64,000 nt of DNA from the NCBI GenBank assembly GCA_035084275.1, contig CM068750.1:10106001-10170000 (forward strand). Direction: 5' to 3'. The translations under genes and the position numbers were made by a program. This DNA comes from Hydrolagus colliei. Lineage: Eukaryota. This document shows, piece after piece, positions 6,001-58,460 of the stretch. Within the stretch, counting starts at the first letter, position 1. Every line of letters starts with the position of its first letter. The notes under the pieces were generated by a model. It did not search any database. It saw only the letters and a list, made by a program, of their open reading frames with translations, and was not told the origin of the DNA.

Positions 6001-7879
6001 CCTATTCTAATCTACTCTTCTAATTCGGTTTTTGCCAATCTGTTTAAACTATGCTCCTGATGCACCAGTTACTCTGCACCCCAGGTATAAAGTAATCAAA
6101 TCCTTGGAATTGCAAATTATACCATTTAAAAAATCTAAATGATGCAAAAATACTGCCCAGTCAGTTAAATTATAGTAAGATATACGTTCACTGCTTCTTA
6201 GATCAGCTATATTAAAATAATCTTGTTTTATGTGACAATATTAGAATGCAGATGTAGTAATAAATGATTTAAAATCCCTATTTGAATTAATTGAGTTTAT
6301 TATGAGAGCGTCATTGATGTATGCACTGTATTTTATAGTCATTTCAATACATTAGAGGCTATCAACTAATATACCTGTATATGGAACAAAAAAGTATTAC
6401 AAAAGAGAGGATTTAAATAATGTTTTTTAAAAACCCAGCCCACTGCATGTTTAATTTAGGTTTCAAGACCATTATAATCTTTTTCAATAAACTATTTAAT
6501 AAGTCTCCAGTGGTTTCTCTTTTCAATCGCATATAACTGTGTTGAATAAATAAGAACACCCCCTGCTCTGACCTAAATTATGAGAAACCAATGACTGATG
6601 TCTAGCAGTAATTCATATAGACATGCTGGTAAAAATTAAAATTCAGGGTTTTTTAACAGTACAGTTGAAAATATTCACAGGTTAGAAAGGAAGAAATGCG
6701 AGCTTATGTAGGAAATGTTCTGTGAATAAATTTAATATCACACTTATCCAGTCCAGAATGCTGACTGGTAAGTTCTATATTTTATTATTACTGTGAGTAG
6801 GGTACTATGTCGAAAAATTGTTATTGAGTAAAGAATGACATATACACATACATTCCACACCACAAATGTGTTGTTACATGAGAAACCATCTGCACTATGT
6901 ATGTGTTCATTTAGTGCATCAGATGAAAGCAAGGAATTTGGTTATTACTTTTCTGTACAAAGTCAGGCTTTTCCTATATGGTTTATTCAATTTGATGACT
7001 GACTCCTAACTATCCTTTATTTACTGCAATAATTGATTTCTTTAGAATGATGTTTCACTGTTAGCATATTTGTGATTTTGTTTTCATCAGAACCATTTCC
7101 CAGTTGGATTCATTATGCTACCATATGACATTTTCTCCATATGGCCAGACTCTGAACACTCATTAACATTCTAGTCAGAACAATCATAAAATCTGTAAAT
7201 AAATGACAACTATCAGATATTCTTATGCATAATCTGAATGTTACAGTACAATGCTTAAAATGTTTATACATTATGCAGATTTGGGATTTTCAGTTGGGAC
7301 CCAAGATACAGTTGTATCTACATTTTTATCTTTTATCTTCGGAATACAGTCCGGTGCAATAATTCTTGTTTTCCTTAAAAGCTTTATATGAAGCTTTATT
7401 TAATTTTTTGCTAAAAAGCCATTGTACTTTCAATTTTTTTACACACATTAGGAACATTCGATTGCACACAGTTCCCCAATGGAAGGGAGTAATCAAACTG
7501 CCCCAGTTTTGTGCATACAGAGAGCAGCTCAACCTAACTCACATTATGACCTTTTCTTCTCCCTGCCCTTATTGTGCTCCCTAATGTTGTTGCTGAGATT
7601 ATGAGCTCACCATATCAAGATCCCACATCCTAACCTCTAAGGCCCTCAAAGACATAACTGAGTTGTAAACCAATGTACAAACTAAAATCACAAGTGTGTG
7701 TTTTTGTTTTAAAAAAACTTGTAATATTAGAAATGCGCTTTTATTCCAGATTGTTAATATTTTACTACTCTTCAAGGATGAAATGCACATTAAGTACAAG
7801 TTGCAGAGCATCAGTACTTACTGGAATAATTGTATTTCATTCAAAGCACAGATAATTTAAAAGTCAATAAAAAATCTCT

Positions 7880-9081
7880 TCTGGAAGGTTGTCTCCCTCT
7901 CTCCGTTCCCAAGACATTCTATTACTTGTAAGCTTTGCTCATTTCTCTCTCACCATTCCCTCTTTGAACCCCTACAAACCGGTTTCTGTGCTTCCCACAG
8001 CACGGAGACAGCCTTGGTCAAACGATATTTTAAAACTTTTGTGATCAGGACTCTGCCTCCTGACCTCTCACTACTTTTGACACTGTCAACCTCTCCATCC
8101 TCTTACACTGTCTCTCCTCCCTGCTCAATCTTCATGGACCTGTCGTCGCCTGGTTCGACTCTTACCTTTCTCACCGTCTCCACTTTGTCACCACCAATGG
8201 CTTCTCCTCAAGCCGCCGCACTGTCACCTGTGGCATCCCCAGGGCTCTCTCCTTGGCCTCGTACTTTTCAACATCTACATATCTTGGTGACACCCCCATA
8301 CATGGGGGTCAAGCTTCCATATGTATGCGGATGACATCCAACTCTATCTTTCTCCCTCTACCCTAGATTCCAGGACCATTGCTGTCCTGACATTCAGCCT
8401 GTCAAACATCAAGTCCTTGAGAACTAACTTTCTAAAGCTGAATGCCAACAAGACCGAGGCCCTCATGATCGGTTCGTGCCAGTGCCTTCACACATCAGAC
8501 ACTGATAGCATCAACCTCCATGGTTGCACACTCCACCTCACTAAGCCAGTCAGGAACATCCAAGCCATGATCCGTTCTGCCTTCCCTCACTTTCACAATA
8601 TCGCCCGACTCCACCACTACCTCACCCCTCTGGCCGCTGAAATTCTCATTCATGCCTTCATCACATCCAGGCTCGACTACACCAATACCCTGCTTGTTGG
8701 CCTTCCCTATTTCTCCCTCCACAAGCTGCGGATAATCCAGAACTCTGCAGCCCGTGTCCTCTACCACACCCTCCGCTCAATAGGCTCCGGCCTGCTCCCT
8801 GTCCCCCAACCCACACCTCCCCACCATTGGCGGGCGAGCCTTCAGCCACTCTGCCCCTAACCTCTTGAATTCCGTCCTGCAGTCCCTCCACCTTGCCCCC
8901 TCCCTAGCCTCCTTCAATTCCCACCTCACGACTCTCCTCTTCAGCAGTCCCATCGGTCACCCGAAATCCCCTCCTTTCCCTCCACCCTTCCGAGCCCAGC
9001 TTGGGTTGAAACCCTGACTGTCCAGCGCCTTGGGATGTTTTCCCAATGTGAAAGGCACTATACAAATATAATTTTGTTGTA
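7880..9081 (+). mobile_element. 5'-truncated, degenerate L2-clade LINE (RT C-terminus plus 3' tail)
   Basis: GF.ASHSTETALVK segment near 7981, RT catalytic YADD at 8324-8335, LKLNANKTE, 'LIHAFITSRLDY.N.LL.GLP' and 'L..IQNSAAR'. Tail GCGCCTTGGGATG...GTGAAAGGCACTATACAAAT...TTGTTGT. Frameshifts and internal deletions present. Confidence 0.92.
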
Positions 9082-17232: not shown

Positions 17233-17475
17233 ATTGGAAATGCAATACTTTGTGCTGGTCAGATTGGATTAGTTCCATGCACCATGCAGCTGGCCAAAGG
17301 AGTTCGATCTCAAGCTGTAGCCTCTCTCAACCATGTTCAGAAAGTTCTAGAAGCTGTGAAGAGTGGAACAAACTTGAGCAATATCATCCTAGCAAACTGT
17401 TATGTCACAGACAAGAAATATGTTTCTGTTGTGCAGAACATCTGGCAGAAGACCATAAAGGAACATATTAAAGAG
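17233..17475 (+). CDS. DPH6: DPH6 long-form internal coding exon, first half of a Rid/YjgF/YER057c/UK114-like domain
   Basis: Polypyrimidine tract plus AG (ttctctttttag) before 17233 and GTAAGC donor after 17475. 243 nt, phase 0/0, no stop: IGNAILCAGQIGLVPCTMQLAKGVRSQAVASLNHVQKVLEAVKSG...ILANCYVTD...IWQKTIKEHIKE. The 'CAGQIGL.P' segment matches the Rid 'SGQIGL.P' motif as found in the eukaryotic Dph6 C-terminal extension. Confidence 0.9.
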
Positions 17476-20297: not shown

Positions 20298-20618
20298 TAA
20301 TAATAATAGTAATATTCCTTGAATTTGATATAGTCATATTTGATATACATCTTCTAGATGCCTCAAAGCGCTTCACAGAATATACTGTAAAGTGAATTGA
20401 CTGTATATTTTGTGGGCGAAACGCGGCAGCCAATTGTGCAAAGCGGTATCCCATAAATAGTCGTTGATTAAAATGACCAATTTATTATTGTTTTTTTGAG
20501 GGATTATTATTAGGCATGTGAAGTAAGAGAACTTGTCAAAGGTTTTGCCCTGCCTGGAATTGAACCCAGGTCTCTCACCTGTAAGGTGAGTGCTCTAACC
20601 ACGGACCTACAGGACTCC
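20298..20618 (-). mobile_element. Full-length tRNA-derived SINE
   Basis: Reverse complement of the 12829 family, ending ...GTGCTCTAACCACGGACCTACAGGACTCC. Confidence 0.92.
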
Positions 20619-21458: not shown

Positions 21459-21945
21459 ATAATTCTTGCATTTGATATAGTGCTTTCACGTCTTCTAGAC
21501 ATCTCACAGCGCTTCACAGAATATACTATATATTTGTGGAGTCCTGTATCTCAAAGGTTAGAGCCCTCGCCTTGCAAGCGAGAGACCTGAGTTCGATTCC
21601 AGGCAGAGCGAAACCTTAGGCAACTTTCCTTACTCCACATACCTCATAATAATCCCTAAAAATTTTTTTTTTTTGTCATTTTCAATCCATGACTGTTTGT
21701 GGGACACTGCTGTGCACAACTGGCTGCTGCAATTGTCACCCACAAAATATACAGTCAATTCACTTTACAGTATATTCTGTGAAGCGCTTTGAGAGGTCTA
21801 GAAGACGTGAAAAGCACTGTATCAAATGCAAGGATTATTATTATGTGAGACGCTTCAGAATAATTTATTTTGGAAAGCAGCAACCAATAGCACACAGCAG
21901 TGTCCTACAAACAGTCGACGATTGAAATTATCAATTTTTGGGGGG
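21459..21945 (-). mobile_element. Older antisense SINE interrupted by a sense SINE
   Basis: Antisense tail at 21459-21536; the antisense body resumes at ~21846-21945 (CACAGCAGTGTCCTACAAACAGTCG). Confidence 0.7.
21538..21844 (+). mobile_element. Full-length tRNA-derived SINE (nested)
   Basis: GGAGTCCTGTATCTCAAAGGTTAGAGC...GAGTTCGATTCC...AAATGCAAGGATTATTATTAT. Confidence 0.92.
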
Positions 21946-23187
21946 AAATCTCTCGAGGTTCCCACAAGTTTAATCCTTCTTGCAATTGAAACCAGACAGC
22001 CAAGTTCTAATGAAGTACCAAAAAATAATAAATGGCTGTAACTGAGAGCTACCAAGGAGAGAAATGCACCTTGAGCATAAACTTAATGAGCATTAAATAG
22101 AGCCTTAACCTTTACAGTGTTTATGCAATAATTTGCAACAAACAGATAAATGTTAACGGCCTTGGCCGGAAACACAGCATTTTAAGAAATTATGACTTCT
22201 TTTTCTTAGCTGCCAATTAGCTACTGCTATGCTTTGCCTAGCATGAACACCACTACATCTAATTTCTGTTCATTTTACTCTTGGGTTCTTGCTACTTTAG
22301 CTTCACTGGTCATTGTCATTTCCAGAGGTCTTTTTATAGCCTGTGTGAAGTATGCACAATGAATTCAGAAGATATAGTTGGCTTTTATCTGCTGTATGGT
22401 ATGTTTGATTTCCCTGGAGTCCAGATTAGACAAAAGTTTTATATTCATTTGAAGAAATTGTAAGGAGAATACTTAGCAGAGGTCAAATGCAGATGGCAGA
22501 ATTTAGCAGATTGAATAATTTCTATCCCCCCCCACACCCCACCTAATACTGCTGTGAACTAAAAGTGGTGATGTGGTTTTCCTTAAAGAAATATTGTAAA
22601 TGTGATAAATCAACATTTTTTGTGTCTGTTGGGTATCTCGTGTGTGGAAACCCATTACCTGCTTAAGACTACCCCAACCAGACTGAGGGGTTCACATATG
22701 AAAATTTTCCTGAGCCAGGAATGGAGTGTTCACTCTCTCCCTGTACTCTGCTTATCTAATTGTGGAAAATATTAGGCACAGGTTGGCGAGAACCCAGGCT
22801 TAGCGACTCCAGAGCGTGTGTTGGCCTAGTCCTGGAACATAACCAGCTAAAACTACTCCACCTTAAGGGCTTTAGCTTGCAAGGTTATTAACAAGAGCAG
22901 AATTGGAAAAATCCTGCTGATGAGCCAGCCTGGCTGGTCTTTTATAAACAGCAAGGCCTTTCTGTAGGCCTGCCTGATTTTGATATTGAGACAGTCCATA
23001 GAGGGTGGACTTAATTCCAACATTTTGTGCCAATCATGTCATTTTGGAGCCAGCACAGCCCCGATAGACTCTGCTTACATCTCACTTCCTGAAGGAAGAT
23101 AGTCTTAAATTGGTCATTTGACATCTGTCACACATCGGTAGATGGCAGTTACTAGGCACTCCCTGTGAGCTTCTTTGTGGTGCCGTA

Positions 23188-23575
23188 GTCACCTCAAGGC
23201 TCGACTACAGCAATTCCTTCCTTGTCGGCCTCCCCAACCCTTCCTTCCATAAGCTGCAGATCATCCAAAACTCTGCAGCTGGTGTCCTCTACCGCACCAG
23301 GCTCGCGACCCCATCACCCCCACCCTGCCCAGCTCCAAAGACTCCCCATTCTTCAGAGGATCCTTGTCCCCACTTTCAAGGCCCTCCACAGCTTTGCTCC
23401 CTCCCACCTCTCTGTCCTGCTGACCCTCTATTGACCTGTCCGCTCCATTCAGCAGGCTCTGTCCTGCCCCACCCCTCCACCCCCATGCTCGGGTCCTGAC
23501 GACTGACTGTTCAGCACTTTGGGACTTCCAGACGTGAAATGTGCTCTACAAATGTAATTTTGTATTTTGTTGTTT
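23188..23575 (+). mobile_element. L2 LINE 3' fragment
   Basis: SRLDYSNS.L.GLP and KLQIIQNSAA remnants, nearly colinear with 8660-9080, with the same tail. Confidence 0.88.
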
Positions 23576-33393: not shown

Positions 33394-33699
33394 TAGACAC
33401 ATGTAGACACATATTTATGGAAAGAAGAACTCCCCTCTACTTTTGTTCTGTAATGCAATCTAAGTGTACTGAAAAATACTGTTAAAAAAAGAGAAAATAT
33501 TTTGTATTGTGTTTTCAGTCACCAGACATTTGAAATTTACCTCTGTACTGATAAGATGACTACTGCAGAAATACAATTATTATTTCCAGTTTTGCCAGAT
33601 TCCATGGGTTTTGCGACCAATAATTAATAGATCACGTCTGAGTGCACCAAACTTGTGATTTGTGTACAATGAATGATAGATCTTCATTATGTTTTACAG

Positions 33700-34096
33700 G
33701 AGGATATTGATGGTCAGTCTGAGGCTGTCTTTGGACCTTTGATCGTGGCAGTGGTGCCTCACCTTCCAAAAGACGCAGCAGTGGAGTGGCATGTAGTAGC
33801 CCTAACTGATGACCCCTGCAAGCGGAAATCATTCAGCATGAATCAGATATTGGATGATTGTAAAATTGACTGTGAAGTAGTTGAGTCAAGCTTCTTGTCA
33901 AGTGCTGCTATCTCATTGACCCTGAGCCTTCTCTTGCCAACAGTAACTTCTTTATACCTAAATACTGTGATGAAAGAACTCGCTACTATGTTGCAGCAAG
34001 CTCTGGATAAGCTTCCCAAAGATTTCATCCAAACCCCACTGTGTTTCAGGACATTCTACCGGAAGGATGCCATAGATGCTAACTCTATGGAAATAG
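33700..34096 (+). CDS. DPH6: DPH6 penultimate coding exon
   Basis: Acceptor gttttacag|GAG, donor G|gtaag, 397 nt, phase 0 to 1, in frame with the previous exon. Encodes EDIDGQSEAVFGPLIVAVVPHLPKDAAVEWHVVA..., the Rid C-terminal 'V..LPK.A.VE' motif. Confidence 0.92.
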
Positions 34097-35524
34097 GTAA
34101 GACTATGACATACCATATTGTTTAGCTGTGTGCAGAAATCAACAAAAAGAGTTTGAATCTTGAATTGACTGCCTATCGGTGTCATGGAGAACAAGTATCC
34201 CCAGTCATCATAAAATAATCTGGATATGGGAGAGAAAGCTGTCTTTGCATTACTTTTTACACCAATCAAGTGTACCTCCTAGATAAACCAAAGGCAGATC
34301 TCTTGGTGTTATGAGAGTTAACATGTTCTGAATGAGGGTAGAGTTGGTACATTGGGAAGAGGGGACTCGTGAGAAGTACCAAAGATTGCATGAAATGAGG
34401 AGAAAGTTGGGTATCCGTTAAAATAAACAACTGACAATTTTGTTACACCTGTGTATCAAAATATACATAAACTGCATATAAAATGCTGGGTACTGTATTA
34501 AGATTCCAAATGCTTATATATAATCTTTATGTAGGATTGTTCTTTATACTGCCAGCTATGAAAAATAACAGATCTTCTGATAACAACCCAGTAACAAACA
34601 TTAAATGTTCTGTAAATTTATTTTTCTTGATGAATCACTGGATGGAGGACATCTGTAAATAACACATCAATGACATGTGCCTTCAGGTCCTTTTCTGTTT
34701 ATTAGCATTGTTGCCCATCAATGTGTCACATATTGTTATTAGGAAACACTGCAAAACCAAAACATGCAATATAAATCAGATTTTTTTTAAAAAAAAGAGA
34801 AACTATCGGTCAGTCATGAACTGGCTCTAAAGTGACATTCCTGCCAATGGAACATCAGAATCAAGCCAGCCCTCTGTAGTGGTCTAGAGTCCGGTTCCTG
34901 AGCCAGGGTGGCAGCACAGCAAGCCTGGCTCATCGGCAGGCTCTTGAAGCAGACCAGTCACTGGGGACAGGGAGTCACCCCACTCAGCACCTGCTAACCC
35001 TCCAAGCCAAAACCTTAACATGTTACGGGTGGTCCTAGCTGAGCAAGCAGCGGAAACGCTTGCCGGACAGCAATATCAATGGCAACTGATGTGGTTTTAG
35101 CTGCTTCAACTCCAGCAGTTCACTCGGGTTCCAACACACACTCTAAGGTTCCTAAGCCTTGGCTCATGCCAAACTGCACTTAATACTTTCTGGAATTGGG
35201 AGGACAAAATGTATCCCCCCCAGGGAGAGAGTGCACATTCCATTCCAACAGCCTACCTCTGGGATTTCCAAGTCTAGGTGGGATGCATGGAAGTCTCAGC
35301 TTGGTTTGGATACTTGTAAGAATGGTGATGGATTTCCGCAGGTAACGGAAAACACGGCTGATCGAAATGTTGTTTTTAAATGGTGAATTGATGGCAGTAG
35401 TTCAATTTGGGAGCCATGCCACCATTCCGAATGCTTGTGATTAATTTTTCAAACACTTTGAAGCGACCTCCAGAAGCGCAAGTTGCTGTGTAAATGTACA
35501 TTGTATACATTGTATTGATAATAA

Positions 35525-35772
35525 ATACAACCTTACATTTTGTATGGTGCCTTTCACATCACAAGGATGTCCAAAGCGCTTCATGGGAAATAGTATAAAG
35601 TAGAGTGGCAGTATGTTTTGTGAATGAATGCAGCAGCCTATATGGGCACAGCAATGATCCATGAACATGGAGTGCAAAACTAATTTTATTTAGGGATTAT
35701 TGGTCAGAGCAACAGGAGAAACTTCCTTCTGCTTTGTAATAGTGCCATGGGATATTTAACGTCTACCTGATA
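35525..35772 (-). mobile_element. Old DeuSINE-type element (SacSINE1/AmnSINE1-like)
   Basis: Antisense reads TCAGGTAGACGTTAAATATCCCATGGCACTATT...GTTTCTCCTGTTGCTCTGACCAATAATCCCT (Deu core), followed by an L2-type tail. Confidence 0.75.
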
Positions 35773-35864
35773 GCTCATGATGCCACTAGACCTAAGTCAT
35801 AAATGTCTATTTCATAACTCAGTGTCAGCATTGATTATCAGTTATTGATCTAAATGCAGATTCC

Positions 35865-36210
35865 CTGCTTTTGTTAGTCTAAATTGATGTGAATAAGCAG
35901 AACAGTAACAGAATAAAACTGCGTAACCACAACGACTATTATTTTCGCTCTCAGTTTGATAGTCAGTCAAGTAACAAAGATAAAATCTGACTTGAATACC
36001 ACAAAGTCTTCCTCACAGAATTATTGGTTTTGCAATAAGATCACTCAAAAATATTGTCAGTTACTTTTGCATCGATTGTGTGAGTTCGTACACTGTTCTT
36101 TAAAATGTGACAGTAGGGAATAACAATTTTTCTTAAACAAATAAATGTCAAATCTTCAATAGAAGAAAGTGTTAGTAGCTGAGAAGTAGAATGAAACACC
36201 CTCATCTTAT
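35865..36210 (+). repeat. ~340-bp direct duplication, copy 1
   Basis: Colinear with 38692-39025, including an exact 34-mer AATCTGACTTGAATACCACAAAGTCTTCCTCACA. Confidence 0.95.
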
Positions 36211-37529
36211 ACAATTTTTTTTTAGAAAGCCATGAGTAGGCTGAATTTAGAATCTGTTTTTAAAATCTGACTTAGGACTGAACAGCAATGTTTAAAGGAA
36301 ACAAAACAACACAAATTCCTGTGACCACAAATCAATGTTAGGCAGAGACTACCTGGCAAAAGAAGCCTCTAAACTGGAATTAGTTTCCGGTCGATATTGA
36401 GACTCACTACTATAGTTGTTTTGTTTTATTGTACATTCATGGAAATTAATCCCATGGGGTCTGTCTTAGTTTGTGTATTTTTTTTAAACAATGTAACAAA
36501 AAAACTGATATAAAAACCGGGTTGCTATTCTTGACATCTAATGATATGATTTACCCAACACACAATACACACTATGGCATTATTGTGGAATTATTCCAGC
36601 ATCTGCTACCTCCCTGGAAGAAAATAGTCTACAGATGTTTCTTTTTGTACATTCGGTCACATTACTATAGTGCTTTTGAAGCACAATGACTAATTATAGG
36701 ATTTACCAGCCTGGCATGTGATCTCTCCCCTAAACACAGTCAGATAACCACTTAATAATACATTGGAGCTCACTTGGAACAATTGTGATACAACCAAATT
36801 ATGCTTCAGGTCAAAAGACTGCCATGTACAAAATCAATTCCATTCCCTGTGTTACAAAATGTCATTGTTGACTCGTGTTCTATAAGATCAAATCTCACTT
36901 AAGACTTCAACCATAATTTTAGCCCACTGTCATTTAGGGTCAAATTCTAAGATATCTTCATTAACGTATTACAACGCTACTTGATAGAATCATTGTGTGC
37001 TCAAAAAGGGTTCTGCAGTTATAAACCTATTTTCTTTAACAATTATATCAAATGAGAGGAAAATACCCGCCACATTGTTAAACTTAAACACAAAAGAATA
37101 GGACTCCAATGCAGAGCAACACAGAATGGTAGTATGTAGCATTGTGTCCACAATTTCCATGTGCTGAGCATAAACCAAATGTGAGCAAGAGAAAATGTCA
37201 CAAAAAGATCAACATCTCTTTGACAGCCTTTGTTTCTTTGTAACGCTTTTCTATTACCATTACCACATACTAACATTTACAGCCCAAGGCACTATATGAA
37301 AAGCGAGTAATACATGTATAAACAAACACATTCACTGGTGCCTCATTACTGTAATTTTTCTGTATTAAGGGTGCACTGATATGTGCCATGAATTAATATG
37401 TTTTATATTGCAAAGATTTACTTTCCCTGCTGTGGATTAGTCATGCATCATGCTACATTCTTTGGCCTTCTAAATGGTCCTAAAGTGCAGAAAAGGCAAG
37501 CCGGTTGCGTACTAAATGAGGCAAAAATA

Positions 37530-37685
37530 ATAATTTGGTCACTCAATCCATGACTGTTTGTGGGACACTGCTGTGCACAATTGACTGCCATGTTTCAACC
37601 ACAAAATTCACTTTACAGCATACTCTGCGAAACTTCCTAAAGACATGATAAGGCGCTATATCATTTGTAATGATTATTATTATTG
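37530..37685 (+). mobile_element. SINE 3' half
   Basis: TTGGTCACTCAATCCATGACTGTTTGTGGGACACTGCTGTGCAC...AGGCGCTATATC...GATTATTATTATT. Confidence 0.85.
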
Positions 37686-38691
37686 AAAACAATGTGAATA
37701 TAGACAGTTGTTAGAATTACAAAATCAAATATTTAGCATTTCAGTGACTCAATGTTGTAACATGAGTGCATCAATGCATGAAAACTTATAAAAGAAAATC
37801 ATAAGGAATAAGGAGCTTCTTTTAGCATAAAATATCAATATAAAAAGGCAAATTTTTGCTTTTGGATATGTTTATTTTCTGAAATAACTCAATTTTATAG
37901 CTTCCATTTTGGCTGTGAGGAAAATTGTACATTTTCTGTGGCAGTGTTAATTGCTGCAGTACAGTTTTGTCAGAATAATTTATTTCCTCATGCATATAGA
38001 ATCAAATTTGTGATATCTTCCCTCAAAATGGGTCATTTTTGCACTACACTACTTACAAACCGACAAACTGTCCAGTTGTTCATTTTAGTAAGTTAACAAC
38101 AAGCAGGTATTGTGTGAGAATTGGGAAACTCAGTAGTAAGTAAATTGTAGTAGTGTAAGTCAAAAATTAAAACCTAAGAGAAATAATGCAATAGTAATTG
38201 GTACTTACAACCAGGCAGCATAGAGACAATAAGATAATGAGAAAGTAAAAGAATGAGCTAATGATAAATTAATTTCCATGCCAGAATTATGCTAGCTTTA
38301 CTGTTTGCAATTTAGAGATTTGTTTAAGTGAGAAGGAGTTCCGGTTTGCAGAGTGAGATGTGTACACCCAGTCATTTATTTTACTACACTTCACTATGGA
38401 CATTGACATTACTAATAGTTGATTTATTTTTCATTTCCAGAAAGAAGGTACCACTTAGTACCAAACAGTTGAAACCACAAGACTAGCATAGAATATTACT
38501 TACTATGCCACAAACTCCATATGTGCATTTCTTTTCAGTTCCAATCCATCTTTTGTTTAAGTAATTTCATATTTAAGTTCCTTTACTCTGCTAAAATCAG
38601 GGATTCTGTTCAAAACTGAAGAACATTTTCTGAGCAGGTTTACATTGTTGCTTTCCAAGCTATATTTACCAAACTTTATTAAAAAAGGTTT

Positions 38692-39025
38692 CTGCTTTTG
38701 TTAGTCTAAATTCATGTGGATAAGTAGAATAAAACTGAGCAACCACAACTTCCTATTATTGTTGCTCTCAGTTTGATAGTCAGTAAAGTAATAAAGATAG
38801 AATCTGACTTGAATACCACAAAGTCTTCCTCACAATATTATTGGTTGACAATAAGATCTCTCAAAAATATTGTCAGTTACTTTTGCATCAATTGTGTGAG
38901 TCGTACAGTATTCGTTAGAATGTGACAGTGGGGAATAACAATTTTTCTAAAACAAATGAATGTCAAATCTTCAATAGACGAAAGTGTTCGTAACCGAGAA
39001 GTGGAATGAAACACCCTCATTTTAT
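38692..39025 (+). repeat. ~340-bp direct duplication, copy 2
   Basis: Colinear with 35865-36210; roughly 85-90% identical by eye. Confidence 0.95.
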
Positions 39026-42000
39026 GTGTTTTTTTTCTTGCCATTGAACTGGAATTTGTTACCTTTTCCAGTAATGTGCTGTTATGCCCTTGATTGATGC
39101 TGTGGCGTTTATTTATGGGTCAGAGCATTGATTAGGGGCAAGATTCAATGTGTTTTGCAGAAAATAAAGAGCAATAATGATGGCTTCAATAAAACAAAAT
39201 TGCAGTGTTAAATGTTTTAAAATAGGCTCTTCAGAAAACATACTCATTTGGAAAAGGCCATATGTTTTCCATATATGAATTAAACAGTTTAATTATCATA
39301 CTTATGCTAGATTATTATCTTACACTGACAGCTCAATCTTTTCCTTCTTGATTACTTTATTTAAAGTGTCTAAAGTTGATGTTCACTCAGCTTTTCAATG
39401 CATTGTGCAACGTCATAGATGATATTCATTATCTGTTTGGTTAATATTACTGACAACAAATATACTGGGTTTATTCCTCGTGGCTTGTATTGTACAGATG
39501 GGAATAGTAGAATTTATAACTACATTACTCTTATATGATTCTGGGAATAGGCTACTTCAGTGGCAATTTTGCAAAATTCTAATTTATTTTTTAAAGAAAA
39601 GAGTAAATTATTCATTTTACTCTTGGTTAGTGAATAAAAGAACTAAGAAAACTATTCGATCAAAGAATTGAGTTTAAGTTTTGTCCCATTATATCATGTT
39701 AGCTGGATGATAGAAGTTTTATGTTTTAAAAGATCAACTAGTAAAGCAATGTGGTAGAGTGGGTTCATCTGCATAAAAAGAGCCAATTGATGAATTGTCT
39801 TAAGAAACAACTATAGACAATGTGCATTTGCCATATCTGAAACTTTAAACAGAGTATGACCTGTGGCTCACTGAGTGTGTTGAACAATCCCCTTTATGAA
39901 AGATTACATAGTAATTCCTTAAAATAATTCATTTTTTATTCTGTTTGTTTTGCTTGCTCTTTAAATAAGGAGATTCCATTAAAAATAGTTTCTTGAGATG
40001 AAGGTGCAATGAATCATACCTAAATAGCAGATGCAACCTCAATTATTTTGTCATGGTAATTCTCAGTTGAATAGCTGTGCATGGATGACTAACACATCGA
40101 TAGAAGGGTTGATGCTTCTGAAATGTTTTCTCAAATATAGTGTGAAGAGCCAGTGGTTGTTCATGTGTACTTTCACAGTCTTTAATAGCATGTTAAAATA
40201 GCAGGGCCTTGCAATATTTTTCACTCCTCATGCTGTGACACAATTCCACCAATTTACATAGTTAATAGGCAAAATATAAATGACTCATTTCTGTAAGGCC
40301 TCTCAAGCATGCTTTGAAAGTCTTGAATTGTGACTTCATGACTTTTAGTTACGCAGCCTTCCTTGATCAATGAGGTGAAAACTAGCAAAGACAGTGAGGG
40401 GGACAGATTTATTTTACTACTTCCAGAGGCGTGAAGAAAATTGCCAAATAGTCTCAGTACTGCAACCTAACCTGGACTTCAGGAAGCGACAATGCTTTTA
40501 GGTAAATGTGTTCCTTCCTTTTCACAGTGTTCAGATTTGGTTTGGCTGTAACTGTAAAACTGAGAAAGAGTTGAGACTTTTGAAAACAACATTTAAAAGA
40601 AAAACAAGCAGCTGGAAGTGGAAACTTCCTTACCTTTTCGAATACATCCATTTTATTCTCATTGAGGTTTATTTATGTGGACTAGGTTGACGACCCAACC
40701 TCAATTTCCATGGTACTTTGCTGAGTCTCCAGTTCCTTGGTATGTTGCCTGAGGCACTGAGCTGATCCTGACTGTTGAATACTTGTGAGCATACATTCTA
40801 TATTGTACTAAGCTCTTCTTTCTCCACTACTTTCCGAGCCTTTGACTGACTTTTGAATCACGGATGAGAAACTGATATAGCTAAATAGAAGCAGGAGTTT
40901 ATCAAAACAAAATTGAGCCATGTCTGCAGTTGACCACTGTGGTTTACTTATTCGGTACCTTTAGAATCTGGCCATTACTTTGCTGCATATTATTGCATGC
41001 TCAAGAATAAATGTTAATCCTAAATGATCAGCCCGATTTCTCTTGATGCACCCGAGAGAACTTAATTAGTGTAAAGTTTCAAAGAAAGTACACCTCTTTT
41101 GGTAAAGGCATGAAGCCATATGTTCTGGCACGCATAGTCATATTGTAATTGTTTCAGGCCTCTCAGCATACGCTTAGGTATTATCTGTTTTTTCAGTCAT
41201 ATATGCTCCACATAAGAAATCAATTATTCAGGGTGTTGAAGCTCAATTGAATGAAATCCATCTGCAGCATAAGAACTTTGTTGTTGCCTGCAGTAGCACA
41301 AAGCTCTGTCAGGTACAGATTTTACAACAACACGCATTTACCATACAATACATTCAATTAGTATAGATTAAAGCTAAAATGACCTTTGTTTAAAACAATC
41401 ATCTGTCAAGAAACCACATTTGAAATAACAAACTAGGTTTGTTTGAAAAGAATACCAATTATATGTATTTTTTAATTCTATAGATACATATGTGCAATTG
41501 AAAATTAAATTATCTATCTTCTCATTTCCCATATTGTTCTGGTTCCTTATGCAATTAACAAATAGATCAGAAATATTACTCAGGGTCAAAGTTAAGTTCC
41601 AGATGCTCCTTCTGGCCAGAAAAAATATTGCAACAATATTGATGCCTTCACCAGTGTCTTCTGGATAGTTACACACCAATACCTGCCATGCAGTGACAAA
41701 TGAAGGGGAGGAGAAATAACTCACCCATTATAAAAGATGACAGGCTTTCCTGAAGAGCAACAAACTGATTCACCCAGTTATTTTGGACATTGCCCCACTG
41801 ATGTTGTTCTCCATTTAAAACCATGTCCTAATTTTAGCCTGCATAGCTGTCAGCACTGAGGCTTGTCTCACACAAGTATAAGTGATGAAGGGTGTTTATA
41901 TGAAGCTGCATTGCCAGGTTGCAATAGTCACTCATAACTTCAGTCCGTAATTGTGGAAATACCTAAATTTAAGTTTCAACTACAAGTTTTTGTTGCTGAG

Positions 42001-43059
42001 CAGCTCTAGACTCTGCTCCTAGGATTCAAGGCATTCTTTGTATAGTATTCCATATCTGAATTACAGGATTCCTCCTGTAATCATTTTGTTGGTTTTCCTG
42101 AACTTCCAGTAAATGCTCTGCAAGATGTTCCTGCAGGAATATATGAGGTGCCATGTAATGTGGCCCTGGATAGAAGACAATGCAGTTTTACGCAGGTCTA
42201 GTATCCATTGCCTGAATCAGAAACATCTCAGTAACTCCTTAATGCTTATTTTATTTTTGGAGAGTAATATTATTATCAAGTGCATTGAATTATGTGCTAC
42301 AACATTGAACCTGAAGAGTGGGAAATTCATTCTCTCACTGTTACTAACTTTAAATCAAAACACCATATTTATATTGTTGAAGCATTGGATTTGATAATAT
42401 TGTTAGTTTTGTGAATCATCTAAGATCACTGAGAAGATAAGTTATTTAAGATAAGTCTGAGTTATAAGTTAATCAGAAATTGGAATGTTTGCTGGAAAGT
42501 ACAAACATTCTCTGAAGTATATTATCAAATGCAACTTAATAAATTTCTGCATAAAGTAGGCAGTATATTTGTATTCAGCAGCCATCTCTCGACAAATAAA
42601 TGTAAACCTTTTGTTATTCAGGTCCCAGCCTTTACTTTTGATTGTTTCAGATCATTGAGTACTTCATGAAGTCATGGCATGGTTTAGCCACTGATGCTCA
42701 CTGATCCAATGCAAAGTGTCGCTTAAATGTATTCCTCCACATGAGCTTTCTCACTTCCAGCCTTTAACCACTAAAGGTTTACGGGTATAATCTGTTACAA
42801 CTTTAGAATTTGAAAAACGTTGAGTTTAGGTATTTGGCAATAAATTAGAATGTGACTTCAGCTGCTGTTTCTGTTGCAAACTCATAATAGACATCAAGCA
42901 TCAAGACACAAGCAAATAGAAATGAAATGGCTGACCCATCAGTGGGCACATCCAGTTGCACACAAAAAAAAGTCCAGCTTTTGATCATTTAGATTAAGTG
43001 CCTTGGGATTTCCTCCTGACGTGAAAGGTGTTATACCATTGCAATTTGTTGTTGGATCT

Positions 43060-43402
43060 AGCAACTTGGTATCCTAGGACAATCGTATCCAAAAATCCAA
43101 CAAATTTTTTTTACTTATTTTAAAACATACCATATTAATAATATACTAACTAATAACAGAATATTGTATGGATACTTACCAATAAAGCATTCCAGCACAC
43201 TCAGTAAAATGATCGGTAAAAAAGCATTCCAGCATTCGTTAAGTTTAATAAGTGCGCATGTGCAAAGCGAGCATACTGTGAGTGTCCCAGATGGCTACGT
43301 ATGAGAATCCGGTTGCTGGAATTGTGAATTGTATTGGGAAACACCGGTTGGTTGAGTATGCTGTTTGGTTAGGTACCAGATAAACAAGGTTTTACCGTAG
43401 TA
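43060..43402. mobile_element. Possible non-autonomous Tc1/mariner (Tigger-like) DNA transposon remnant
   Basis: CpG-containing block ending GATAAACAAGGTTTTACCGTA, resembling Tigger-type termini (...GAGGTTTTACTG+TA), and flanked by short L2-type tails. No matching left TIR found. Confidence 0.3.
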
Positions 43403-43594
43403 CAATTTGTCTGGTTTTAAAGAGACATTCCGTTCATTTCATGAAAGGCAGTATACAAATGTAATTTTGTTGTTGTTATTTTTCCAATATCTTACGATTG
43501 CAACACAAGGATCTGTGTGCTTACCAGTCATGTGGTTTCTTTGCTTTATTGCTGAGATGAGCTTTCACACTTTCCCACAGAACAATTCTTTTAC

Positions 43595-43965
43595 TTGATT
43601 GATCCTAACCTGTCTTCCAACAGATCGACTTCAAGGTCCTCACATTCGCCTATAAATTGTGTCTCACCCAATGACCTCTATCTCTGTGATCTTCTTTCCC
43701 CTCTTCTACTTCCCTCTACTGTTCTGCTAACTCAGGCCAAAAGTATCGTTGATCAATCCTTCAATAACTATGCCCCTAACTTTGAGAACTCTCTCCTTCT
43801 ACCATTCCATCCGCCCTCTCTCTACCTATAAATTCCTCCTATTTCTTTAACCGTGCCTATAGTCTCCCACCCTCCTGCCTTGCTTTGTATCTGACCGCAT
43901 CTTTGTGAAATGGCACTCATATATAATCCTAAATGAAGTGTACTATATAAATATATGTTGTTGTT
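43595..43965 (+). mobile_element. Decayed L2 3' fragment
   Basis: IDFKVL and SFNNYAPNFENSL remnants (L2 'I.FKIL', 'AFS..AP.LWNSLP') and tail GTGTACTATATAAAT...GTTGTTGTT. Confidence 0.65.
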
Positions 43966-45262
43966 TGTGTAATCGGTGGTATTTATGTTTCTGTGGTACT
44001 AGAGACGTCATATAGTTTTATTGCCATCCAGTGATGCTAACAAACTTTTAAGATTACTTATAATTCTATATTATCTGATTGTTGGAATATATTACTTACC
44101 AAGTGGAAAATAACTATGTGAGGTGGTCTTATCAAAAAGAAGCCAGGAGTTCCATTAGAGATAAACTTTTTCTTTTTCTTTGTTTAAAAAAAGATTTAAT
44201 TGATTTGAATATACTGTAATATATTAGACCATTTAACTCTTCATACTGTATAATATTTTGATCACAATAGGTTACTTTATTTCATATGTTATAAAAGGTG
44301 ATCACCATGAAAAAATAATATTAACATTGTGTTCTAATAACTATGGGGCAGTCACCACATTGTAAATCACAGCCAACTCTTAAGGCATTTTGATCTCATT
44401 TGAAGAATTTGCACTGCTTCTAAACTTGCAATGTGTTTTTGTCAGGTTTTTTTTATCACAGAGACTCATTTTCTAAAAACTCACTACCTGTATTTAACAA
44501 TAGCTTTGATTATATTTTGCAGGAAAGGTACACAATAATCACCCAGCAAAAATGAAGCCATATATTGAGAACAATCAAACTTGAATCATTTACCCCAAGT
44601 CCTCAATTTGCTATAATTGAAGCCAAAGCCACTGTCTTTCTAATGCATCCAATTAGTGTCCATATGGTTTGACAGTAAGAAGATGTGAATATTCCACAAT
44701 CTGTTAGGGACTAAGGGACATCAATAACTCTGAATAATCATATAGGCCCTGGTCAATGGGTTAAGTGCCCCACTGACCATAGGGCACATCTTTAGGGACT
44801 GCGTTCTTATTCTAGTACCAGATATCCAATCCTCAATGGGACTCGTTTTCACAGCATAAGCCGTGTATGGGATTTATACTCTGAGGGGTTGTCCTTGGTT
44901 AGTTCAGGCGTTTGATGTGATGTGCTTGAAACTCAGCTACCATATGCTGCAAACAAAGTGAGACTATTTCAGATATTACAGATTGATTGATTTTCAAAGA
45001 CAAAGAGCTTGTTGGTCTTATTTGGTGCCTATATCACCATATAAAAATTATCAGAATCATAGAGAACATTTCAAGCAAGCTTACCTTACAGCCTTCCTTT
45101 TAACTGTGCAAAACTGTAGCCTGACGCCCATTTTCTTCAGTCAGGTCTCTTTAGATTTTTATTCAGTCAATGTTTATGTGCATTCCAATGTAATAATTTG
45201 CAGTTCTGCAGTAAGTAAGTTATAAAACCATATATTTTACATTGTTATCATTACCTTTCCAG

Positions 45263-45381
45263 AGTTCAGGAGATGTCTGGAAGAACTGATGGGTTCAAAA
45301 TTCCCACCTCTGATTTTGGTACCTGTAGCAGACCTACCTGACCTGGAAATACTGCACATCGCTTGTTGGTTAAGCATCTAA
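45263..45381 (+). CDS. DPH6: DPH6 terminal coding exon (missed by the ORF track)
   Basis: Acceptor ttacctttccag|AG completes the split codon G+AG (Glu) from the phase-1 donor at 34096. Reads EFRRCLEELMGSKFPPLILVPVADLPDLEILHIACWLSI then TAA at 45379-45381. Confidence 0.85.
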
Positions 45382-48011
45382 GAATTAAAGATGAAGAATA
45401 AGCAGCAGCCAGCTACTGTGAATCAATTTCCTCCCTTTTATTTTTTTAAAAAAGCAGTTCCCCACCTGTGTTTATCCTAGCAAATCTAACAGAATGCATC
45501 TGCAATCACTTCAAATAACATTTCTGTCAACACTTCTGTCTACCTAATAATAATGGCCTTCTTATTTGCAGCCAAAGTTCACTGTTGCATTTATTGGCAA
45601 CTGATAAAAGGAGAGAAAAAAGTGTTAGTTATTATTGGCTTTAGTGTTGGTTTTAAAGACTGCTCTGTAAAAGTTGGCAAGGAAAAAACAATCATTCTCT
45701 ATATCTTGTGGATAGAGCATAAATATAAATTCCTTTTGTATGATTTTGAACCATTTTCTATAACGTCATAGGCAGACTATGTTATTGCCATCAGCCAGAT
45801 AGCGTGCTTAGCATTTGAAGTTCTGCATAATATATGGTGAAAAATATACTTTAGTAACTCAAAGGATAAATATGGTTAAAGGACTCATAAAATGCCCTTT
45901 GTCTCCCTCTGAAATGAAAAACAAAAGCAGTTTGTAAAACACAGTTCGCTGGATGAGTAATTTTGTACTGGACTTGAAAGTGTTAAAAAAAACTGTACAA
46001 CCCTCAGAATTTTTTTTAAAATTGGTTTTGAGCAACGTGATTTTCAAATAAATCAACAATATCCCACCGGTAAGGTTGAATTATGTGTGTTCTTTTATGA
46101 GTAAAAATTACCCGTGTGATAGTCCTTTGAAGAAATGAAAGAATGGCTTCAAGCCACTGTTACCAATAACATAGTCTCCTTTTTCTCTTGTATGCATTCT
46201 TTGCTCAATGGTTTCTTTCCACATGTGTACTTTTTAATCCTATTTTCTTCTGCATACACTCCAACTAGGAGAAGAAGGCAGTTGTGACCACAGACTTCTC
46301 AATGGGTATTTCTTGATCAGCCAACAAGTGCAATTTAATTTACAGCAAATTGGATTGTGTCAATTACTTCATTCTGCCCCTGCCCAATATCATTGGCGAA
46401 TAATGCATTTCACCCTTCCCAAAAACCAATGATCTTCTCAGACTAATAAGACTCGGAGGATATCCCAATTTGCAAATGCAATTAGTAGTGCTTATGAATT
46501 GGCCACTAGGTTTCCTTCATCTCTCTCATTGGCTTTCATTTCCTGAAGCCGAGCCTGACAACTTGAACGATTGTCAATTTGTCAACCGATAAAGGCCTGT
46601 GTCATTGATTGCCAGTTAAGGCTGAAATTCAAATCTACCAACCATTCTCCCCACCACCACCACCACCCGATTTAATGCAGTGTCTTTTTGGAATGGTTTT
46701 GACATATTTGATTGTCCAGTGACATGTTTGCATCTGCTCTCAGAATATTACCGCAGAACTGTGGTCACACTTACAGATGTGTTTCCCACTATGGCGAGAC
46801 AGTGTTCTCCTCTCTGTTTTGATCATACCCGTGGGATAAATCTTTTTGCTTGTAAATAAAGTACATATCTAATGATGTAAACCCATTAGTGGTTAATAGA
46901 TGCATTATGTCAGGAAACCGGATTCATTTTTGGCAGCGTATTGTGGACCATGAGCAAGTGTGTCGGGAGTAGCTCATGTAACTGAATGTCTGCTTATACA
47001 GTTCTTACCATTCTAATATAATGTATAGAATATATGTATGGAACATATATAAAATATCATTCTGTATGTATATTTTAAACAATTGTCAATAAGGAATATA
47101 AAATATAGCAAGCAAATGCAACTTTTTGTTTGCTGTATTTTATGTAAATGTACTACTGTAAACTAGTCTTGTGAAGAGAATGGAAATGATTAAAGAAACA
47201 CCAATGATCAACTTTAAACAAATGTACCCAATTGAGTGGAAGTGCTACAGTTATATTTCATGGTTTGCTGGACAGCAAGAGCTATCAGCCAACAGGTTTG
47301 TGGAAAAAAAAGAATGAAGAAAAAGTACTGCATAGCTCTTTGCTTGAAATTTCCGCCATTCTATTATTCATTTAACATTGCTGTTGTGACTACTGTTTCA
47401 GTACACATTAACTGGCTGTATATATTAGCATATTAAAAATGTAGCCATCTGGTAACATTGAAAATTAGCAGTGTAGTCAAATGAAATTATATCTTCTACC
47501 TCCATTATAGTGCAGGTTCAGAATCAATGCCTTGCTGAGATCATTGTTAAACTGGCTTGAGAAGTCAAAGGCATTGTATCCAGCACTACAGTATTTCAAC
47601 ATGTTACAAAGGTTTGAGGAAGGCCACCTCCAATATTTTGCCTTATGCCCTTTTTTCTTGTTAGCATCTAATTACAGTATCTTTATTTTTTCCAAAATAT
47701 CTAATGGTTCTTTTTAGTTGGAGGAAATTGGAGCAACAATACAGTGATAGCACAATCATTCCTGTGCATGTTGGAAGTTCATGTATTCCCACGCTCATAC
47801 ACTGGATGCAACTGCATGTGTACAATGTATTATATAGCATGTTACTTCCAGGACTCAGATCACAATGCAGAACTATTTTGCCTCTAAATCCCAGGGTGTT
47901 GAATATAATCTTAAACACTTTCTAAACACTTTCTAAAGATATCACCATCATCTGTATTCATGTAAAGTCAAGAAATGTACTCAAATGTTCCAAAATAAAA
48001 CCACAAATAAA
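45382..48011 (+). other. DPH6: Probable DPH6 3' UTR with candidate poly(A) signals
   Basis: Follows the stop codon and has no recognisable TE. AATAAA hexamers at 46855, 47994 and 48006. The true 3' end cannot be determined from sequence alone. Confidence 0.45.
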
Positions 48012-51852: not shown

Positions 51853-52175
51853 ATAATAATAATAATCCTTGCATTTGATATAGCGCTTTTCAAGTCTTCT
51901 AGACGTCTCAAAGTGCTTGACAGAATATACTGTAAAGTTAATTGACTGTTTATTTGTAGGTGAAACGTGGCAGCCAATTATGCACAGCAGTGTCCCACAA
52001 ACAGTCGTGGATTGAAATGACCAATTTATTATAGTTTTTATTTTTTAGGGATTATTATTAGGCGTGTGTATGGAGTAAGGAAACTTGCCCAAGGTTTTGC
52101 CCTGACCTGCCTCGATTCGAACACAGGTCTCACGTTTGTAAGGCGAGTGCTCTAACCACTGAGCTACAGGACTCC
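51853..52175 (-). mobile_element. Full-length tRNA-derived SINE
   Basis: Antisense A and B boxes (GTGCTCTAACCACTGAGCTACAGGACTCC; GATTCGAACAC), with complete body and tail. Confidence 0.93.
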
Positions 52176-57072: not shown

Positions 57073-58149
57073 ACCTTGAAATATCCTCCACAACTAGAGA
57101 AATCAGTGACAGGTGTAATATCTCATAAAAATGTTTAAAGATGTGTTGACTTTACTGGGACTATATTCCCCCCTGGTCCTACTAATAAAATAGCTTTTAA
57201 TTCATCTTCCTGGATTCACTGTGCCAAAAGCCTACCTGTCTCTTCATCTCATCCCCTTGCACTGCAGGATAGAGCCTGTTAATATGCAGTAGTTAATCTA
57301 TTTTTATGGCAACAGAGCATTAAGCTTATATTTTTTAAACCCTTCAGGCTCCGCTGAGTATTTGGGTCTTGGGTTCCTTGCATGTTTTATCCCTTATGAT
57401 TTTAATTTTCTTTTCTAATAAGGACACTTGGCTCTTCGCAAGTTTTTTTTCCCCCCATATAATTAATCCTTCCTCTCAGAAAAGCTTTCCCTGTGTCCCA
57501 AAGCGAGGCTGCAATGTCTCAGGTGTGTCATTAATATCTTAAGTATTCCTGGAACTCTTTAGATATCTTTTCACCAGTGAGGCATTCTTAAGAAATAACT
57601 CATTAAACTTCCATCTTTATGACCTTGTAACCTCTGGATTAAGGCTAAGGGAGTTCCACAGACCATGATCATAGACGGAAATAACATCAATAGCCACATT
57701 GAAAAGTTCCGACACCAGGAAACTAGAGACCAGAGTAGAGTCAATATGAGCATAAATTAGCTAAAGCAGGAAAAATAAACAGTAATGAAATATACAGAGA
57801 GAAAAGAGAAACAAGAAAATTAAAGCGTAAAACAAAGGGACCTTCTCTGAAGGGGACACCCTATACCCCCAATCCCCATCTGCAAAAATACCAAATCAAA
57901 CTTTCACAACAGAGGCCCATTCCCTTTAAATAATGACATGGATGAGATTTTTTTTAAATCATTTTCAGAAAGCATTTTGATATATTGGCAGAAGAAAGAG
58001 GAGAATACAATACTGCTTCACTTCTCCCTACCTGCATTCTGCCTGGATTAAATTTATCTCTGATATTATGTACCTGTAGACAGCATCTAGTGTCTGCTCT
58101 ACTCGATATGCACTTACTTGCAACTAACCAAAACATGACTTTGAGGCTT

Positions 58150-58460
58150 GCTGCCTCCTTACATCAGCTGCAGAGCATTCAGAACTCTGTAGTCTCTGTT
58201 CTCTCCCACAATAGGTTTCACGAACACAACACCCTGTCCACATTTGACCATCAGCTCCCCGTCCCCCAGCGGATCGAATTCAAGGTTCTCTTCCTCATTT
58301 TCAAATGCCTTCACAATCCCTTTCCATCCTACTTCTGGGACCTCCTGCAACCCTTCTGTCCTAGCCACTCCTTCCACTTAACAAACAACACCCTGCTCAG
58401 TATCCTCCACCCACCACACTACTGAAAGTGAGCCTTCAGCCATACTGCCCCATCTATCCC
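58150..58460 (+). mobile_element. Decayed L2 fragment
   Basis: LHQLQSIQNS...HQLPVPQRIEFKVLFLIFKCLH, matching the L2 ORF2 C-terminal 'LHWLPV..RI.FK' motif. Confidence 0.85.

Follow-up and report, generated by a model that had tools for sequence, protein, structure and literature searches.

The window analysed here, 64,000 nt of the forward strand of the Hydrolagus colliei assembly GCA_035084275.1 (CM068750.1:10,106,001-10,170,000; coordinates below are window positions, and the parts of the gene all lie on the + strand), holds by homology the end of a long-form DPH6 gene, with its last three coding exons. From its sequence the source would be placed among the cartilaginous fish near Callorhinchus, and DPH6 of Callorhinchus milii (696 residues, here P0004) is our reference protein, whose numbering is used for all residues. 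The first of the three exons (17233..17475; P0004 445-525), recognised by a PF01042 match, by tblastn to P0004 and by its splice ends and phase, encodes the middle of Rid repeat 2 and includes G453, the equivalent of Gly31 of TdcF. The second (33700..34096; P0004 526-657), recognised by tblastn, by its splice ends and by contigs in all four runs compared, encodes the final two strands of repeat 2 and the first 95 residues of the predicted repeat 3. The third (45263..45381; P0004 658-696), identical to P0004 at 38 of 39 residues in tblastn and present in the splicing contigs, completes repeat 3 with its second helix and the two strands at its end, and then has the stop codon. The last intron (34097..45262) is repeat-rich, spans 11,166 bases with GT-AG ends in phase 1, and is skipped by contigs of two runs, X6 and X7. 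These contigs reach 45579 and 45600 and so cover the start of the 3' untranslated region (45382..45600), 45600 being the limit of the stretch compared with the run contigs; a hexamer scan gives a candidate AATAAA signal at 46047.

The 3' end of a long-form DPH6 gene

The three exons have AG/GT ends with agreeing phases (0, then 1), and when joined they form a single open frame of 252 codons that stops with TAA at 45379-45381, the other two frames holding 25 and 13 stops. The spliced product is identical to the C-terminus of P0004 at 229 of 252 positions, with zero gaps. Beyond the end of the second Rid domain 137 residues remain, close to the tail of about 135 that an initial annotation, made from the letters alone, had counted; the peptides it quoted (PLCFRTFY and EFRRCLEELMG among them) lie where it put them, in one + strand frame. 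Among the proteins retrieved with the middle exon, the 12 longer ones all belong to cartilaginous fish and reach 89-90% at best. A search of 30 kb upstream of the window located the exons that encode P0004 residues 166-445, in the expected order and confined to the nearest 22.4 kb. At its N-terminus P0004 matches the ligase family PF01902 (Diphthami_syn_2) at an E-value of 1.7e-46, and two PF01042 domains follow, which is the arrangement of a long-form Dph6. In two shark or chimaera annotations (P0003 and P0008) an uncharacterised gene of its own, 236-272 residues long, has been made of the last exons, probably a split gene model owing to the long introns.

The join of 34096 to 45263, on which the tail depends, is seen in single contigs that run from 33698-34094 directly into 45261 onwards in two of the four runs (X6 and X7, from one study), whose RNA type is predicted and not recorded and which come from a relative with 29 differences across the 397-base exon. 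We read this join as splicing because an 11-kb skip with GT-AG ends matches what splicing yields. It may instead come from a processed copy in the DNA of the relative, against which stands the single copy of the tail exon in this genome. Run X4, from a different study, is compatible with the join, its second piece being absent from the shortened table, and the contig listed for run X1 ends at 34082, before the join. A mis-join of exons was rejected on the splice ends, the phases, the open frame and the contigs spanning the junction; the initial annotation had named an unspliced 45263-45381 as fatal to its proposal, and the splice ends and probable-RNA contigs show the two exons joined. We also rejected a separate downstream gene: most of the shorter matches carry a partial label or lie on short contigs, and those that are named include no mammals.

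Fold, packing and distribution of the tail

Modelled alone (Callorhinchus protein, 134 residues, 67 sequences), the tail reaches a predicted local distance difference test score (pLDDT) of 92.5 and a predicted template modelling score (pTM) of 0.86, with the predicted order strand-strand-strand-helix-strand-helix-strand-strand. This is a mixed sheet with two helices across the whole domain, the Rid/YjgF topology, and its first part (three strands, a helix and a strand) would be encoded by the single-copy segment 33811..34096. In the full-length model the corresponding elements include helix 612-628, strand 637-646, helix 652-670 and strands 674-679 and 686-695, in agreement with the helices and strands that the initial annotation had guessed. 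A wide search with the tail model against 48,161 solved chains placed Rid-family proteins or a chorismatase at every rank from 1 to 16 (Z 9.7-7.8, root-mean-square deviation (rmsd) 2.7-3.8, 98-115 of 134 residues), the first unrelated chain appearing at rank 17 with Z 7.5. In a second-look comparison chorismatase 5a3k scored Z 11.2 (rmsd 2.7, 111 aligned), Mmf1 10.0 and TdcF 9.6. Foldseek gave a best E-value of 4.2e-4, and the 30 rows listed comprise 27 Rid-family chains (by title), one chorismatase and two DUF1185 chains; the best score of a feature search in the ESM Atlas, 0.79, serves as a lead only. Judged from these models, the tail very probably folds as a third, degenerate Rid/YjgF repeat, as had been proposed from the letters. 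The Z values are modest, and the case therefore rests on the unanimous top ranks, the cover of the whole domain and the position of the tail beside two true repeats.

Several observations weigh against this interpretation. Pfam gave no match in the tail of four full-length proteins or in two window exons, and sequence and profile searches of the PDB returned, among their best matches, no solved RidA or other chain matching the tail, and no structure of a long Dph6. Compared by hhalign with repeats 1 and 2, the tail reached only 6% and 16% probability, albeit with alignments that keep the fold's register; sub-group tail profiles scored 0.3-39%. Sequence thus gives weak support for a common origin of the tail and Rid. 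Its Z values of 8-11 barely exceed those of unrelated folds in this library, and the models were built from the Callorhinchus protein, not from the product of the window itself. Such figures, together with structural alignments at 4-18% identity and the DegV, HypA and PurM-like chains that come next at Z 7.5-7.1, would suit a look-alike alpha/beta domain of other descent, matched through convergence or modelling bias. However, it is Rid-fold chains that fill the sixteen leading places, the weak profile alignments stand above reversed controls in most pairs, and the tail lies in tandem with two Rid repeats, so that we find a look-alike hardly credible.

The full-length P0004 model, built with 122 sequences, has a pLDDT of 92.7 (91.2-92.7 over five models) and a pTM of 0.92. 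Three comparisons describe its packing: (i) residues 313-696 align as one body onto the FIST domain of FBXO22 (8UA3; 257 residues, Z 16.5, rmsd 3.3), with 256 residues aligned for 8UA6 and Z 16.5-16.8 over the two; (ii) residues 310-696 align more loosely with barbiturase (268 residues, Z 8.7, rmsd 5.5); and (iii) repeats 1 and 2 align as a rigid pair onto chorismatases (217 residues, rmsd 2.2-2.3, Z 20.7-21.4). FIST is described as three pseudo-threefold repeats, likened to chorismatases, cyanuric acid hydrolases and YjgF and possibly derived from YjgF monomers (PMC11185555). Since the model aligns all three repeats onto FIST, the tail is placed as the third member of the ring, and it is highly likely, as far as the model goes, that the three repeats pack with pseudo-threefold symmetry. 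The trimer-like module in one chain that the initial annotation imagined thus gains support from a model packed like known one-chain pseudo-trimers, and the unrelated structure that would have refuted it did not come out, YjgF/Rid folds being matched by the tail model ahead of all others. A caution is that AlphaFold may pack Rid-like domains as a trimer out of learned patterns. When the tail and repeats 1 and 2 were predicted as a complex without an alignment, the score was 0.02, with the fold of the tail itself uncertain, an outcome that weighs neither for nor against the packing.

A search with P0004 residues 300-696 returned 884 proteins at an E-value of 1e-5 or better, of which the best 120 belong to sharks, rays, turtles, crocodiles, birds, tuatara, lungfish, bowfin and a caecilian, with coverage of 97-100%. 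HMMER was also run in full against 1.84 billion representatives, and we used its 150 best matches. Ten were looked up, and the eight that could be named (amphioxus, a moth, a chytrid, dodder, two basidiomycetes and two dictyostelids) carry 107-172 residues after repeat 2. With the tail called by a motif rule, namely both repeat-2 motifs and then a count of the residues that follow, 129 of the 150 have the motifs, and 116 of these keep at least 85 residues beyond repeat 2. Tail groups, assigned roughly by the nearest named anchor and aligned independently, match each other with probabilities of 90-97%, where reversed controls give 0.4%. Of 57 distant tails, 38 were recognised by a profile of animal-like tails at P under 0.001, and 0 of 57 when the tails were reversed. 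A lineage-specific extension was accordingly rejected, the tails being homologous across groups. By these matches the tail is found in animals, fungi, plants and amoebae, and there is nothing special to this fish, in which the gene is ordinary.

Pocket residues divided between repeats 1 and 2

In the homotrimer TdcF, seven residues line a pocket between subunits, and Glu120 bonds residue 107 of the neighbouring subunit (PMC1884159). The seven are Tyr17, Gly31, Asn56, Asn88, Arg105, Pro114 and Glu120 in TdcF/RidA numbering, of which six are scored here, Asn56 being left out. Tyr17, Gly31 and Pro114 stand, we assume, on the same subunit as Glu120. Our alignment of 122 homologues (106 of the 150 representatives and 16 vertebrate proteins, selected by length and coverage and not by residue) has ten invariant columns, of which N372 and R386 belong to repeat 1, and S429, W431, P438, Y439, Q441, G453, P548 and E554 to repeat 2. 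Motifs and an alignment with solved RidA identify among them the equivalents of Asn88 (N372), Arg105 (R386), Tyr17 (Y439), Gly31 (G453), Pro114 (P548) and Glu120 (E554). These six are found in 122 of 122 sequences; in the unfiltered alignment, which has 241 rows, they are present in every ungapped row (238-241 rows, depending on the column). Repeats 1 and 2 together thus hold the six RidA pocket residues, in this genome as well.

These residues are distributed by side of the cleft: the Asn88/Arg105 side survives in repeat 1 alone, the Tyr17/Gly31/Pro114/Glu120 side in repeat 2 alone, and repeat 3 has neither. The opposite sides have been lost, with Glu at the Glu120 place of repeat 1 in 1 of 122 sequences and Arg at the Arg105 place of repeat 2 in 1 of 122 (5 of 122 when two columns to either side are allowed); near this last place the window has an Ile codon (33742..33744), and shortly after it P548 and E554 (33766..33786), which would form one side of the composite pocket. 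Repeat 3 taken alone lacks the RidA hallmarks, with Arg at the Arg105 place in 2 of 119 tails and Glu at the Glu120 place in 3 of 119. Columns conserved at 90% or more number 4, 19 and 0 in repeats 1, 2 and 3; the unfiltered alignment shows the same split of residues, and in the family profile the first half of RidA matches repeat 2 and the second half repeat 1. Counted against the reading of a conserved third repeat, 16 representatives outside the alignment retain all six pocket residues yet have fewer than 85 residues after repeat 2 (7-83); some of these look like compact tails and others like cut gene models.

Two further conserved places accompany the pocket. A stretch specific to Dph6 (P0004 424-431, in an exon upstream of the window) immediately precedes the Tyr17 loop, with S429 and W431 invariant and H424 present in 121 of 122, and might act as a lid or touch the ligase domain. 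In repeat 3 no charged place is better conserved than the one encoded at 34048-34050 (R642), where 96 of 119 tails have Arg or Lys.

Since each repeat holds one side only, a ring of like repeats cannot complete the site, whereas the interface of repeats 1 and 2 can. This bears on a further explanation, in which the site is made between separate Dph6 chains by homo-oligomerisation or domain swapping, the tail being a mere appendage. Homotrimers are the usual state of Rid proteins, and Uthman et al. proposed that the domains may promote homotrimerisation (PMC3585130); but like repeats brought together as a trimer would each offer the same single side, and in the one-chain model all three places are already occupied. 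We regard a site between chains as very improbable.

The geometry of the predicted site is drawn from the chorismatases. The alignment with 5a3k, which we take to be Hyg5, ends at residue 560 of the model and residue 340 of the chain. E554 and Glu334 each stand six residues before these ends, and Glu334 is the catalytic residue of Hyg5 (PMC7170507). This suggests that the two glutamates occupy the same cleft, formed by an Arg from one domain and a Glu from the next, and R386 of repeat 1 is likely to face E554 of repeat 2 across one cleft. It must be set against this that the lining of one cleft by all six residues is inferred from the rigid-pair match to chorismatases and not from coordinates. 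A single composite site between repeats 1 and 2, instead of three sites, is likely. We put the probability of a one-chain pseudo-trimer with one composite RidA-type site between repeats 1 and 2 at about 0.75, a figure that covers this architecture and excludes any step involving ammonia. Repeat 3 would serve as a structural closure, allowing the module to function without oligomerising.

In spite of clear similarities, this architecture differs from that of each known system: (i) The long eukaryotic Dph6 proteins (yeast YLR143W; CDD eu_AANH_C1 and C2) are the same gene with the same order, a PP-loop ligase and then Rid domains, which are required in yeast (PMC3585130, PMC3709272, PMC3541065). 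The published accounts, in the portions available, speak of two Rid domains and of homotrimers; a third repeat, closure within one chain and a single composite site are absent from them. (ii) The chorismatases FkbO and Hyg5 (4BPS, 5A3K, 5AG3) are single chains of YjgF-like domains on which repeats 1 and 2 superimpose as a pair, and their catalytic Glu is likely at the place of E554; however, identity is 12-13%, and they are stand-alone bacterial enzymes acting on chorismate. Their third domain is probably at the opposite end of the chain from repeat 3 of Dph6, given that the sequential alignment stops short of that repeat. (iii) The three repeats of FBXO22 FIST align to those of Dph6 in order, but at 9% identity, and FIST is a protein binder in which no ligand pocket is obvious (PMC11185555), whereas Dph6 retains the RidA pocket residues. 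(iv) 3x-RidA (Niehaus et al. 2015, PMC4433059) has three Rid domains per chain and is presumed to be a covalent trimer, which resembles the predicted module of Dph6; it is prokaryotic, its three domains are all recognisable as RidA, and it has no ligase fusion. Dph6 does not qualify as 3x-RidA, having two Pfam stretches only, the full residue set in zero repeats and a pocket divided over two. (v) The RidA/TdcF/UK114 homotrimers share the fold of each repeat, and six of their seven pocket residues are recovered when two Dph6 repeats are summed, but three chains give them three equal sites, against one predicted site in one Dph6 chain.

The ligase-Rid fusion, the two domains and the idea of ammonia supply are already published, as are one-chain Rid trimers in other proteins (PMC4433059). 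A search of openly available papers found neither a third repeat nor a single composite site described in Dph6, though AlphaFold DB, TED or ECOD may already carry a label for the third domain. The tail of Dph6 is real and conserved, and as a third repeat it is probably undescribed. It would add to chorismatases, FIST and barbiturase a eukaryote-wide case of a homotrimeric enzyme that has become one lopsided chain.

Possible roles of the module, and other features of the locus

What the Rid domains do for Dph6 has been debated in the literature since 2012-2013, when ammonia supply by the two recognised domains was proposed (PMC3541065, PMC3585130), and three repeats with one composite site in place of a homotrimer make it directly testable. 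In yeast, deletion of 335-415 or truncation abolishes Dph6 function (PMC3585130), and function is also lost in the allele F373A N377A R396A Y449F S450A G467A Q468A (PMC3709272). Judged by motif, these seven substitutions appear to touch both sides of the proposed site, though a seven-fold mutant could merely misfold. If the composite site works as in RidA, the pocket would bind an imine or enamine bearing a carboxylate and hydrolyse it, and the ammonia would pass to the adjoining ligase domain, which by orthology would amidate diphthine on eEF2 in an ATP-dependent reaction. Deamination with hand-over of ammonia is the most likely single role for the pocket, and we advance it tentatively. The strongest point against it is that human DPH6 is without the module and can still bring diphthamide back in a mutant of yeast (PMC3585130); moreover, changes of Tyr17 and Glu120 scarcely affect Salmonella RidA (PMC4433059).

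The same one-chain pseudo-trimer might instead carry a pocket that senses metabolites, so that binding of an amino or keto acid turns the ligase on, with no ammonia made. The short human DPH6 works in yeast and the yeast ligase domain alone does not (PMC3585130), which fits a ligase dependent on its module better than a shortage of ammonia; the pocket of TdcF binds serine, 2-ketobutyrate and propionate (PMC1884159); and the stretch 424-431 is unmatched in most solved RidA chains. However, Arg105, which separates imine-hydrolysing Rid subfamilies from the others (PMC4433059), is invariant here, and the glutamine amidotransferase fusion carried by some archaeal Dph6 is a precedent for a built-in source of ammonia (PMC3541065). 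A sensor or gate seems to us rather unlikely.

Less probable still is that the module acts mainly as a platform for binding a protein (eEF2 or Dph7), as FBXO22's FIST domain does for BACH1, the pocket being secondary. FIST, the best match to the whole module, binds its protein through the third repeat (PMC11185555), and repeat 3 conserves an Arg or Lys at 642; but conservation is concentrated in the small-molecule pocket and is lowest in repeat 3, and short Dph6 recognises eEF2 without any module.

To return to hydrolysis with hand-over of ammonia, its broadest form would make long Dph6, as found in fungi, plants, amoebae and animals other than mammals, a two-engine amidoligase, in which the single composite deaminase site feeds the ligase from imine or enamine metabolites. 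We regard this as doubtful. If true, diphthamide synthesis, and hence the fidelity of the ribosome, would be tied to the breakdown of amino acids, and Dph6 would be an amidotransferase using a Rid module in place of a glutaminase.

The genome has a second PF01042 locus (G000:C2:67901035-67903530, - strand), probably a stand-alone RIDA gene. The remaining features of the window are mostly repeats. Within the last intron, very high-copy repeats at 34800-35800, 37500-37700 and 43000-43600 match thousands of contigs. Open frames at 7861-8860, 23122-23499 and 57958-58425, in introns and in the DNA downstream of the gene, resemble decayed reverse transcriptase of long interspersed nuclear elements, a naming that we base on the motif. 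Finally, ARAGORN calls two tRNA-like genes, at 20546-20615 and 52102-52173, both on the - strand, the second labelled Cys with an ACA anticodon. Both lie near copies of a repeated element with similar open frames (near 21653, 50246, 51745 and 59748), and they are likely the tRNA-derived heads of short interspersed nuclear elements.

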